NCBI RefSeq assembly: GCF_003334305.1
Contig: NZ_QOWS01000020.1
DNA: 64,000 nucleotides
Strand: one strand, 5' to 3'
From: Escherichia coli
Lineage (GTDB): Bacteria > Pseudomonadota > Gammaproteobacteria > Enterobacterales > Enterobacteriaceae
Shown here: in pieces, positions 37,903 through 60,971 of the stretch
How positions within the stretch are numbered: the first letter of the stretch is position 1
Layout of the letters: each line of letters opens with the position of its first letter
Made by a program: the position numbers and the translations under genes
Notes under the pieces: generated by a model
Told to the model about the DNA's origin: nothing
Seen by the model: the letters and a program-made list of their open reading frames with translations, nothing else
Databases searched by the model: none

Positions 37903-39972
37903 ATGTCTGAGAAAACTTTTCTGGTGGAAATCGGCACTGAAGAGCTGCCACCAAAAGCACTGCGCAGCCTGGCTGAGTCCTTTGCTGCGAATTTTACTGC
38001 GGAGCTGGATAACGCTGGCCTCGCACACGGCACCGTTCAATGGTTTGCTGCTCCGCGTCGTCTGGCGCTGAAAGTAGCTAACCTGGCGGAAGCGCAACCG
38101 GATCGTGAAATCGAAAAACGCGGCCCGGCGATTGCCCAGGCGTTCGACGCTGAAGGCAAACCGAGCAAAGCGGCAGAAGGTTGGGCGCGTGGTTGCGGTA
38201 TTACCGTTGACCAGGCTGAGCGTCTGACTACCGATAAAGGCGAATGGCTGCTGTATCGCGCCCATGTGAAGGGCGAAAGCACCGAAGCACTGCTGCCGAA
38301 TATGGTTGCGACTTCTCTGGCGAAACTGCCGATCCCGAAACTGATGCGTTGGGGCGCAAGCGACGTGCACTTCGTGCGTCCGGTGCACACCGTGACCCTG
38401 CTGCTGGGCGACAAAGTCATTCCGGCAACCATTCTGGGCATTCAGTCCGATCGCGTGATTCGCGGCCACCGCTTTATGGGCGAACCGGAATTCACCATCG
38501 ACAACGCCGATCAGTATCCGGAAATTCTGCGTGAGCGCGGGAAAGTCATCGCCGATTACGAAGAACGTAAAGCGAAGATTAAAGCCGATGCCGAAGAAGC
38601 AGCGCGTAAGATTGGCGGTAACGCTGACTTAAGCGAAAGCCTGCTGGAAGAAGTGGCTTCGCTGGTGGAGTGGCCGGTCGTTCTGACCGCAAAATTCGAA
38701 GAGAAATTCCTCGCGGTGCCGGCTGAAGCGCTGGTTTACACCATGAAAGGTGACCAGAAATACTTCCCGGTGTATGCGAACGACGGCAAACTGCTGCCGA
38801 ACTTTATCTTCGTTGCCAACATCGAATCGAAAGATCCGCAGCAGATTATCTCCGGTAACGAGAAAGTCGTTCGTCCGCGTCTGGCGGATGCCGAGTTCTT
38901 CTTCAACACCGACCGTAAAAAACGTCTGGAAGATAACCTGCCGCGCCTGCAAACCGTGCTGTTCCAGCAACAGCTGGGTACGCTGCGTGACAAAACTGAC
39001 CGCATCCAGGCGCTGGCTGGCTGGATTGCTGAACAGATTGGCGCTGACGTTAACCACGCAACCCGTGCGGGCCTGCTGTCTAAGTGTGACCTGATGACCA
39101 ACATGGTCTTCGAGTTCACCGACACCCAGGGCGTTATGGGGATGCACTATGCGCGTCACGATGGCGAAGCGGAAGATGTCGCGGTGGCGCTGAATGAGCA
39201 GTATCAGCCGCGCTTTGCCGGTGATGACCTGCCGTCTAACCCGGTAGCCTGTGCGCTGGCGATTGCTGACAAGATGGATACTCTGGCGGGTATCTTCGGT
39301 ATCGGCCAGCATCCGAAAGGCGACAAAGACCCGTTTGCGCTGCGTCGTGCCGCACTTGGCGTGCTGCGAATTATCGTTGAGAAGAACCTCAACCTTGATC
39401 TGCAAACGCTGACCGAAGAAGCGGTGCGTCTGTATGGCGATAAGCTGACTAATGCCAACGTAGTTGATGATGTTATCGACTTTATGCTCGGTCGCTTCCG
39501 CGCCTGGTATCAGGACGAAGGTTATACCGTTGACACCATCCAGGCGGTACTGGCGCGTCGTCCGACTCGTCCGGCTGATTTCGATGCCCGTATGAAAGCG
39601 GTATCGCATTTCCGTACCCTGGATGCAGCTGCTGCACTGGCGGCGGCGAACAAACGTGTATCTAACATTCTGGCGAAATCTGACGAAGTGCTGAGCGACC
39701 GCGTGAATGCCTCTACCCTGAAAGAGCCGGAAGAAATTAAACTGGCGATGCAGGTTGTGGTGCTACGTGACAAGCTGGAGCCGTACTTTGCGGAAGGTCG
39801 TTACCAGGATGCGCTGGTCGAACTGGCAGAGCTGCGTGAGCCGGTTGATGCTTTCTTCGATAAAGTGATGGTCATGGTTGATGACAAAGAATTGCGTCTC
39901 AACCGTCTGACCATGCTGGAGAAACTGCGCGAACTGTTCCTGCGCGTTGCGGATATTTCGCTGTTGCAGTAA
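37903..39972 (+). CDS. glyS: glycine--tRNA ligase beta subunit
   Basis: 689 aa; 9 nt downstream of glyQ. Confidence 0.95.
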
Positions 39973-39986
39973 TAACGCCGTTATTA

Positions 39987-40016
39987 AAAAGCCTGCCATC
40001 TGGCAGGCTTTTTTTA
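39987..40016 (+). terminator. rho-independent terminator of glyQS
   Basis: aaaaaGCCTGCCatctGGCAGGCttttttt read directly. Confidence 0.85.
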
Positions 40017-40189
40017 TTATCGCTAAATAATACAGCAACCTTTAATAATCTTCTGCTGAATAAAGATTATCTCATATATTAATTTTATGAGGTTTTTTTA
40101 GGATTATATCAAGGAGAAGAAACAAACTTATTAAGCTAGAATAGCCACGGGTGCTTGAGACTGTTTGTCTCAGGTATTCACCGAAAGGC

Positions 40190-40260
40190 AGACAGAGAAA
40201 AGCCCCACCTGACTATAAATCAAAGTGAGGCTACCCTATGCCTGAACACCATAAGGTTAG
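40190..40260 (-). ncRNA. sokA: presumptive Sok-type antisense RNA of the hokA locus (approximate position, opposite the mok start / hok leader)
   Basis: Placement inferred from hok/sok family architecture only; ends not determined from sequence. Confidence 0.25.
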
Positions 40261-40534
40261 CCTCTTACTCGTTGGAAATCAACACAGGGGGCTGGGAATG
40301 CCGCAGAAATATAGATTACTTTCTTTAATAGTGATTTGTTTCACGCTTTTATTTTTCACCTGGATGATAAGAGATTCACTGTGTGAATTGCATATTAAAC
40401 AGGGGAGTTATGAGCTGGCGGCATTTTTAGCCTGCAATTTAAAAGAGTTAGAGTCTTCGGCGGGAAGTTATTCCCGCCTTTCTTACGGCGTTGCGCATTC
40501 TCATTGCACCCAAATTTATTTTTCACAAAAATAA
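40238..40534 (+). CDS. mokA: mok-type upstream reading frame, in frame with and encompassing hokA
   Basis: ATG 40238 with SD gtgagg 8 nt upstream; uninterrupted frame through hokA. Confidence 0.5.
   Translation: MPEHHKVSLLLVGNQHRGLGMPQKYRLLSLIVICFTLLFFTWMIRDSLCELHIKQGSYELAAFLACNLKELESSAGSYSRLSYGVAHSHCTQIYFSQK
40298..40534 (+). CDS. hokA: Hok-family type I toxin; frame open for 78 codons, with no stop at the usual ~50-codon position
   Basis: MPQKYRLLSLIVICFTLLFFTWMIRDSLCELHIKQGSYELAAFLAC... from ATG 40298; first in-frame stop TAA 40532-40534. Confidence 0.7.
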   Translation: MPQKYRLLSLIVICFTLLFFTWMIRDSLCELHIKQGSYELAAFLACNLKELESSAGSYSRLSYGVAHSHCTQIYFSQK

Positions 40535-40580
40535 TACTAGATTTTATTACGCGATCGATTATTTATTTCCTGAAAAACAA

Positions 40581-40612
40581 ATAAAAAAATCCCCGCCAAA
40601 TGGCAGGGATCT
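40581..40612 (-). terminator. cspA intrinsic terminator (hairpin plus T-tract on minus strand)
   Basis: Minus strand reads TCCCTGCCatttGGCGGGGAttttttt just 3' of cspA stop. Confidence 0.65.
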
Positions 40613-40637
40613 TAGATTCTGTGCTTTTAAGCAGAGA

Positions 40638-40850
40638 TTACAGGCTGGTTACGTTACCAGCTGCCGGGCCTTTAGCGCCGCTTTCGATGGTGAAGGACAC
40701 TTTCTGACCTTCGTCCAGAGATTTGTAACCATCGTTCTGGATAGCAGAGAAGTGTACGAACACGTCTTTAGAGCCATCGTCAGGAGTGATGAAGCCGAAG
40801 CCTTTGTCAGCGTTGAACCATTTTACGATACCAGTCATTTTACCGGACAT
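40638..40850 (-). CDS. cspA: major cold-shock protein CspA
   Basis: 70 aa [21 protein letters not shown]... with RNP1/RNP2 motifs. Confidence 0.95.
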
Positions 40851-41046
40851 AGTGTATTACCTTTAATAATTAAGTGTGCCTTTCGGCGATATGGCGTGCT
40901 TTACAGATTTTGAAGCGTTAAAGGAATGTGCACTACGAGGGGTATCAACGATAACTCTTGAAGGGACTTGCCTTACTACACTGCTTTAATGGTCTGTACG
41001 TCAAACCGTTGATGTGCATTAAGCCACGCATTGGCGGGTGATGCAA
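40851..41046 (-). promoter_or_regulatory. cspA: cspA promoter (-35 TTGCAT at 41041-41046, -10 CTTAAT at 41018-41023, AT-rich UP region upstream) and 159-nt 5' UTR with cold-box / thermosensor leader
   Basis: Minus-strand sequence ...TTGCATcacccgccaatgcgtggCTTAATgcacatcaACGGTTTGACGTACAGACC... matches the known cspA promoter and leader. Confidence 0.85.
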
Positions 41047-60365: not shown

Positions 60366-60488
60366 GCTGGAGAGAGAAAACCCCCGCACGTTGCAGGTAT
60401 GCACCTGACAACATAACGGGGGCTAATCTTGAACCTAAACAACTCAAGAATAGCCGCGAAACGTTGTCATTACAACACAGGCGGCTAT

Positions 60489-60848: not shown

Positions 60849-60971
60849 GCTGGAGAGAGAAAACCCCCGCACGTTGCAGGTATGCACCTGACAACATAAC
60901 GGGGGCTAATCTTGAACCTAAACAACTCAAGAATAGCCGCGAAACGTTGTCATTACAACACAGGCGGCTAT

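Follow-up and report, generated by a model that had tools for sequence, protein, structure and literature searches.

The glyS-cspA spacer contains a chromosomal hokA/mokA/sokA locus

The window analyzed here is a 64,000-nt stretch of the E. coli chromosome in which glyS ends at position 39972 on the (+) strand and cspA occupies positions 40638 to 40850 on the (−) strand (ORF list). Positions 39973 to 40637 are exactly the glyS-cspA spacer (665 bp), and the gene order at the site is glyQ and glyS on the (+) strand, cspA on the (−) strand, then yiaG and yiaF. Each end of the spacer carries an intrinsic terminator. The glyQS terminator (39986 to 40013, + strand) is a 13-bp perfect hairpin followed by a T-run, found both by the terminator scan and as inverted repeat I6, while the cspA terminator (40586 to 40613, − strand) was found by the terminator scan and as the 3′ end of the Rfam cspA thermoregulator model, which spans 40583 to 41010 with a score of 501 bits on the window copy. 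The hokA/mokA/sokA locus lies between both terminators. The original prediction had described the interval as the terminators of glyQS and cspA plus the mokA and hokA frames, all of which we located by the ORF list, the terminator scan, and profile matches.

Residues 1–50 of HokA match NCBIfam NF007290 (HokA equivalog) with 130 bits, against a cutoff of 89, and Pfam PF01848 (HOK_GEF) with an E-value of 6.8e-23. In addition, the whole of Rfam RF01794 (“sok,” modelled on the hok-mRNA strand) is matched by positions 40149 to 40300 (124.9 bits; gathering score, 59). On the basis of these matches and of synteny with K-12, the interval can be assigned with certainty to hokA/mokA/sokA, the known chromosomal type I toxin-antitoxin locus of the Hok/Gef family, which is found here at its established position. 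It does not represent a new kind of system: the IS-free form of hokA, including versions from wild isolates, has been known since 1999, and the stop-less allele presented below is already a RefSeq pseudogene. A 140-aa ORF on the (+) strand (40491 to 40913) was rejected, being antisense to cspA and without support. The gene at the cspA position is named “cspE” by PGAP in all non-K-12 genomes examined.

Elsewhere in the window, two matches to the rdlD antitoxin RNA (91 bits each) were observed on the (−) strand at 60375 to 60440 and 60858 to 60923, i.e., 483 bp apart, implying tandem copies of an ldr/rdl type I toxin-antitoxin system. K-12 presumably has a single ldrD/rdlD at the corresponding locus.

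The shared stop codon of mokA and hokA is lost

The mokA frame (40238 to 40534, + strand) begins at an ATG (40238) located 20 codons upstream of, and in frame with, the hokA ATG (40298), and has its own Shine-Dalgarno (SD) sequence GAGG at 40227 to 40230. The frame agrees with the mokA annotation of K-12, where mokA and hokA have a common end coordinate. Normally, mokA comprises 70 codons ending at 40450; with the shared stop lost, the ORF list and the translation give 98 codons in the window. Codons 1–50 of the hokA toxin (40298 to 40447, + strand) include the cysteines C14, C29, and C46, as seen in the translations and in the NF007290 and PF01848 matches. These 50 residues are identical to WP_001135738 and differ from those of K-12 by E36G and K47N.

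Directly after the conserved C-terminus, where an ORF of ~50 codons would close, codon 51 (40448 to 40450, + strand) reads TTA in place of TAA, owing to an A-to-T change at 40449. The change is evident from alignments, translations, and PGAP pseudogene flags. Specifically, the closest canonical allele, that of strain 14EC029, is 99.8% identical to the window, and the one mismatch in 665 positions is this very substitution. Since TAA is kept in the alignments of K-12, ST131, E. albertii, and Kluyvera, TTA is the derived state. The codon list contains no in-frame stop between 40448 and 40532, and translation would continue through a read-through extension (40451 to 40534, + strand) of 27 further sense codons to a TAA at 40532 to 40534, as also given by the ORF list. 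Counting the TTA codon (40448 to 40450), the extension amounts to 28 extra residues, LESSAGSYSRLSYGVAHSHCTQIYFSQK, which bring a fourth cysteine and lengthen the hokA ORF to 78 codons. In E. coli W and in strain 504838, the latter with an interval 100% identical to that of the window, PGAP flags hokA as a “missing C-terminus” pseudogene.

Judged from its sequence, the locus lacks one defining feature of a functional Hok member, the closed toxin ORF of ~50 codons, while the other features that could be tested are present. The description of the mok/hok/sok locus as “intact” in the original prediction does not hold, given the TTA at the shared mokA/hokA stop and the pseudogene flag, and annotators should not call this hokA copy intact. 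The allele is not restricted to a single isolate. At least 60 complete genomes, recovered from many different hosts, contain the identical 665 bp, and an exact 81-mer with TTA was found in 141 of 5426 complete E. coli genomes; the TTA allele is thus present in at least 141 genomes.

Two further differences among alleles were observed in this region. On the (−) strand, translations and annotations place a ysaE-like small antisense ORF at 40448 to 40498, with 16 codons (MRNAVRKAGITSRRRL, then a stop); the hokA stop-loss substitution turns a Leu codon of this ORF into a stop, and the ORF is longer in K-12 (23 codons) and in 14EC029 (19 codons). The SD sequence of hokA (40286 to 40290) reads GGGGG in the window, 14EC029, and E. 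albertii, and GGAGG in K-12, ST131, and Kluyvera.

The predicted hok and Sok RNA elements appear complete in silico

The predicted −10 box of the hokA promoter, TAGAAT (40137 to 40142, + strand), fits TANNNT, lies 6 nt upstream of the predicted +1, is accompanied by no good −35 element, and is also found in the Kluyvera locus. From there, a full-length mokA/hokA mRNA of about 368 nt (40149 to 40516, + strand) is predicted, with its 5′ end at the start of the RF01794 match and its 3′ end given by the fbi element plus a T-run. In the minimum free energy (MFE) fold of this RNA, the two ends pair (GGGUGC..UGAG with CUCA..GCACCC, i.e., tac with fbi; z = −7.1 relative to shuffled sequences), and the GCCC box of ucb pairs with the mok SD. 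The tac element, GGGUGCUUGAG (40149 to 40159, + strand), was recognized from the folds and is identical in Kluyvera, whereas the fbi element, CUCAUUGCACCC (40500 to 40511, + strand), was recognized from its complementarity to the 5′ tac and from the fold, and is conserved in E. albertii and Kluyvera.

Upstream of fbi, a 3′ stem-loop, GGCGGGAAGUUAUUCCCGCC (40459 to 40478, + strand), was recovered as a terminator-like match and in the folds, and shows compensatory stem changes in Kluyvera. By analogy with the R1 model, this stem-loop is presumed to be the stop point of 3′ exonucleolytic trimming and hence the end of the truncated, active mRNA. When the last 34 nt are taken off, back to the GC-rich stem-loop (40149 to 40482), tac pairs instead with ucb (AAGCCCC, 40200 to 40206, + strand), its partner once the 3′ end is removed, and the mok SD comes to lie inside a hairpin at 40227 to 40264 (+ strand). 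This putative Sok-target hairpin, also detected as inverted repeat I20, contains the mok SD GAGG, the mok ATG (40238), and a CUGA loop of the YUNR (U-turn) type. Both the tac/fbi pairing and the alternative tac/ucb pairing were thus obtained in MFE folds, with elements conserved in E. albertii and Kluyvera. The hok start region (40290 to 40304) is in turn complementary to 40418 to 40432.

On the opposite strand, a sokA antisense RNA of about 52–56 nt (40192 to 40247, − strand) is predicted from the K-12 sokA remnant, the fold, and a predicted promoter. The annotated K-12 remnant maps to 40192 to 40226, and in the fold of the predicted RNA, a short 5′ tail precedes a hairpin (z = −4.7). Its size fits the sokA target of 52 bp given in PMC3562002. 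The predicted sok promoter consists of a −35 element TTGATT (40282 to 40277), a 17-nt spacer, and a −10 element TAACCT (40259 to 40254), placing the Sok start near 40247; the match to the consensus is weak, and the hexamers are conserved in Kluyvera. Both the hok and the sok promoter escaped a strict sigma-70 consensus scan and were therefore assigned by position and conservation only. Overall, the hok/Sok RNA elements appear complete in silico, with transcript ends and promoters that we infer from these models.

IS150 is absent from the window and recurs at hokA in other E. coli genomes

The spacer was originally said to have no transposase ORF and no IS terminal repeat, and both statements were borne out: the ORF list contains no insJ or insK transposase ORF in the interval, and neither end of IS150 was found in the whole 64-kb window with up to three mismatches allowed. 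In K-12 MG1655, the glyS-cspA spacer measures 2066 bp, compared to 665 bp in the window, and contains IS150 (insJ/insK) at 3720633 to 3722075, between the mokA and sokA pseudogenes. The MG1655 annotation thereby agrees with the original statement that K-12 carries IS150 beside hokA with disruption of mokA, and adds that sokA is disrupted as well. The target duplication that had been expected in a K-12 alignment does not exist; instead, K-12 shows a 39-bp deletion corresponding to window positions 40227 to 40265, which takes out the mok SD and ATG, the Sok-target hairpin, and the predicted sok −10 box. A K-12-type IS150 without target duplication and with a 39-bp deletion looks like the result of an IS-mediated adjacent deletion.

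Among 5426 complete E. coli genomes, the interval was uninterrupted, defined as at least 80% of it in one piece, in 2831 (52%), and the K-12-type IS150/hokA junction was found in 1663 (31%). By subtraction (5426 − 2831 − 1663), roughly 930 genomes have a second junction type; the raw count of 1133 for this ST131-type junction is inflated, since K-12-type genomes also give alignments of about 85% identity over the similar IS150 end. In the second type, initially noticed in an ST131 strain, IS150 is opposite in orientation to that of K-12 and forms a clean insertion at AAG (40223 to 40225), with a 3-bp duplication and 2 nt upstream of the mok SD.

The flanks of the insertion in E. coli W correspond to the window haplotype, with 0 mismatches in 253 + 415 nt, TTA included, while those of ST131 differ from the window at 28 of about 670 aligned positions. 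A sequence-identical IS150 in the same orientation, at the same AAG, and with the same 3-bp duplication was observed in E. coli W (record L005, 1372 to 2814) and ST131 (record L004, 2560 to 4002). The window haplotype is therefore the exact empty-site counterpart of the E. coli W insertion, and in the W lineage, IS150 appears to have entered a hokA copy that was already without its stop. The IS150 copies of K-12, ST131, W, and MSB1_1D showed no differences in the comparisons made, and because of this identity, recent and repeated insertion of IS150 at one preferred site in the hokA leader is favored. The alignments also suggest that the leader, 2 nt upstream of the mok SD, is a hot spot for IS150 insertion. 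Strain MSB1_1D (record L008) has an identical K-12-type junction, flanked on the left by K-12-like and on the right by window-like sequence, i.e., it is recombinant; recombination thus moves hokA alleles, too.

The uninterrupted arrangement is older and widespread

In Kluyvera sichuanensis, a homologous hok locus directly follows glyS, and in E. albertii, hokA adjoins cspA; both keep the TAA stop. Because glyS-hok linkage is found in the former and hok-cspA linkage in the latter, the uninterrupted arrangement is the older one. The view that the window keeps an ancestral, uninterrupted configuration stands as regards both the lack of interruption and the age of the arrangement; what does not stand is the notion of a rare relic, since with 2831 of 5426 genomes uninterrupted, the IS-free state of hokA is the majority state in E. 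coli. In a scan of genome contigs, a degenerate hok pattern was matched in E. albertii and Kluyvera alone; no E. coli was recovered although K-12 fits the pattern, and the scan is therefore uninformative on distribution.

Several other rearrangements were observed at or near hok. The contig of E. albertii NBRC 107761 ends 15 nt upstream of the hokA ATG (record L006, 9683), where E. coli carries IS150, and the break may have been caused by a repeat. In Kluyvera sichuanensis (record L007, about 575 to 705, − strand), the glyS-linked hok is split after about codon 7 by a ~127-bp element, which we take to resemble an ERIC (enterobacterial repetitive intergenic consensus) element; the split would be yet another route by which a hok locus is inactivated. 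In E. coli YL03 (record L009, about 850 to 1340), an extra segment of ~390 bp with an annotated YidD-like protein lies just after fbi and the T-run and before the cspA terminator, a place consistent with the hok module ending, on its 3′ side, near window position 40520.

Loss of the stop codon probably disarms the toxin

Chromosomal hok loci are inactivated in different ways in different strains. Our preferred reading, to which we assign a probability of roughly 0.8, is that the IS-free hokA/mokA/sokA locus of the window is a natural, lineage-wide pseudogene allele that, by analogy with R1 hok, is most likely non-toxic through loss of its stop codon. This route of inactivation differs from the IS150 insertions of K-12 and many other strains. 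According to the proposed mechanism, a weak promoter would drive the mokA/hokA mRNA, the full-length form of which would be closed by pairing of the 5′ tac with the 3′ fbi; after trimming back to the GC-rich stem-loop, ucb would take over tac. Translation of mok would drive that of hok, and the ~52-nt Sok antisense RNA would cover the mok start. With TAA changed to TTA, translation would yield a Hok with 28 extra C-terminal residues or, alternatively, ribosomes would run off a stop-less message. The latter is possible because the next stop (40532) lies beyond both the predicted trimmed (~40480) and full-length (~40516) 3′ ends. Non-stop messages are rescued by tmRNA, and their product is tagged. 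Should transcripts extend further in the direction of the cspA terminator, translation would end as usual and yield the 78-aa protein.

Experimental data on R1 hok bear on the consequences of such a change. In a saturation screen of R1 hok by FASTBAC-Seq, the suppressors of toxicity included six substitutions by which the stop codon is abolished, and an 8-residue C-terminal FLAG tag abolishes the toxicity of R1 Hok (PMC9841398); the stop-loss result concerns a different homologue with a 17-aa extension, which limits the analogy to HokA. By this analogy, we consider it likely, with somewhat less assurance than for the allele as a whole, that stop loss disarms the HokA toxin, by extension or by a stop-less message. 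The allele is one base from intact, and reversion or suppression could occur.

It is unlikely that the window carries an intact, killing-competent ancestral mok/hok/sok locus, in which the extension is harmless or the toxin otherwise still works and is restrained by Sok. Such a locus would agree with the lack of IS150, the RNA architecture that is complete in silico, the residues 1–50 that are unchanged from the annotated intact allele (C29 and C46 included), and the toxicity of overexpressed HokA coding sequence, the only form in which HokA is described as toxic in bioRxiv 10.1101/2025.08.07.668861. However, it conflicts with the lost stop codon, the PGAP pseudogene call, and the abolition of R1 hok toxicity by stop-loss mutations and a C-terminal tag. 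Moreover, the IS-free hokA of E. coli C displayed neither post-segregational killing nor activation by rifampicin (Pedersen and Gerdes 1999, as cited in that preprint), which, as far as this secondhand account goes, contradicts the claim that the IS-free configuration kills its hosts in wild isolates.

A conditional toxin seems more doubtful still. Here, the non-stop Hok would be tagged by tmRNA and degraded, and would build up only under impaired trans-translation or proteolysis. The lack of an in-frame stop from 40448 to 40532, with both predicted ends upstream of that stop, would allow for such an outcome, and tmRNA rescue of non-stop messages is established knowledge; yet the 3′ ends are predictions, the toxicity of a tagged or extended peptide is hypothetical, and the picture looks like simple decay, with a single SNP, confined to a limited lineage, in a haplotype that subsequently acquired IS150 in E. 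coli W. We give slightly less credence again to the stronger version, modelled on these same ends, that the stop-less hokA is not mere decay and makes Hok only as a tmRNA-tagged non-stop product, i.e., a natural stress-gated toxin; if true, HokA toxicity would hinge on the state of trans-translation and proteolysis. Finally, a sequencing or assembly error at a canonical locus, as a single-base difference from the closest canonical allele might suggest, was rejected as virtually inconceivable, given identical 665-bp intervals in at least 60 independently sequenced complete genomes, the TTA 81-mer in 141, and TTA in three separate E. coli W-lineage records.

Returning to the preferred reading of a toxin disarmed by stop loss, this natural allele offers a ready-made test of whether a C-terminal extension disarms a chromosomal Hok as it does R1 Hok.

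Comparison with known hok/sok systems

The hokA/mokA/sokA locus of K-12 MG1655 (b4455, b4647, and b4614) occupies the same glyS-cspA site, encodes a HokA identical at 48 of 50 residues, and has the same 3′ UTR elements and antisense ysaE region as the window. In contrast, K-12 carries a 1443-bp IS150 (minus strand in the orientation of the window) and the 39-bp deletion of 40227 to 40265 and has kept its TAA, whereas the window has neither insertion nor deletion and has lost the stop. The hokA region of E. coli W (ATCC 9637) matches the window exactly on both flanks, TTA included, and differs by IS150 at AAG 40223 to 40225, a site that is empty in the window. The hokA/sokA locus of E. coli C (Pedersen and Gerdes 1999, as summarized in PMC3562002 and bioRxiv 10.1101/2025.08.07.668861) is described as uninterrupted, as in the window, and as equipped with a sokA antisense RNA, the 52-bp target of which fits the RNA predicted here at 40192 to 40247; the window additionally lacks the stop codon.

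The hok/sok (parB) system of plasmid R1 resembles the window locus in mok-coupled hok translation, tac/fbi closure, tac/ucb refolding, and a Sok RNA over the mok start, all of which are in silico features here. The two differ in that R1 hok/sok is plasmid-borne and the window locus chromosomal with a shorter leader (mok ATG at about +90, compared to +116 in R1), and in that mokA shares the reading frame of hokA, while a different frame is implied by the R1 data. Unlike R1 hok/sok, chromosomal hokA is credited with no killing phenotype in bioRxiv 10.1101/2025.08.07.668861. The closest parallel to the lost stop is provided by the R1 stop-codon suppressor mutants (PMC9841398), which also have a C-terminally extended Hok and have lost toxicity; these are laboratory mutants with a 17-aa extension, whereas the allele of the window occurs naturally, in at least 141 sequenced genomes, and extends the protein by 28 aa.
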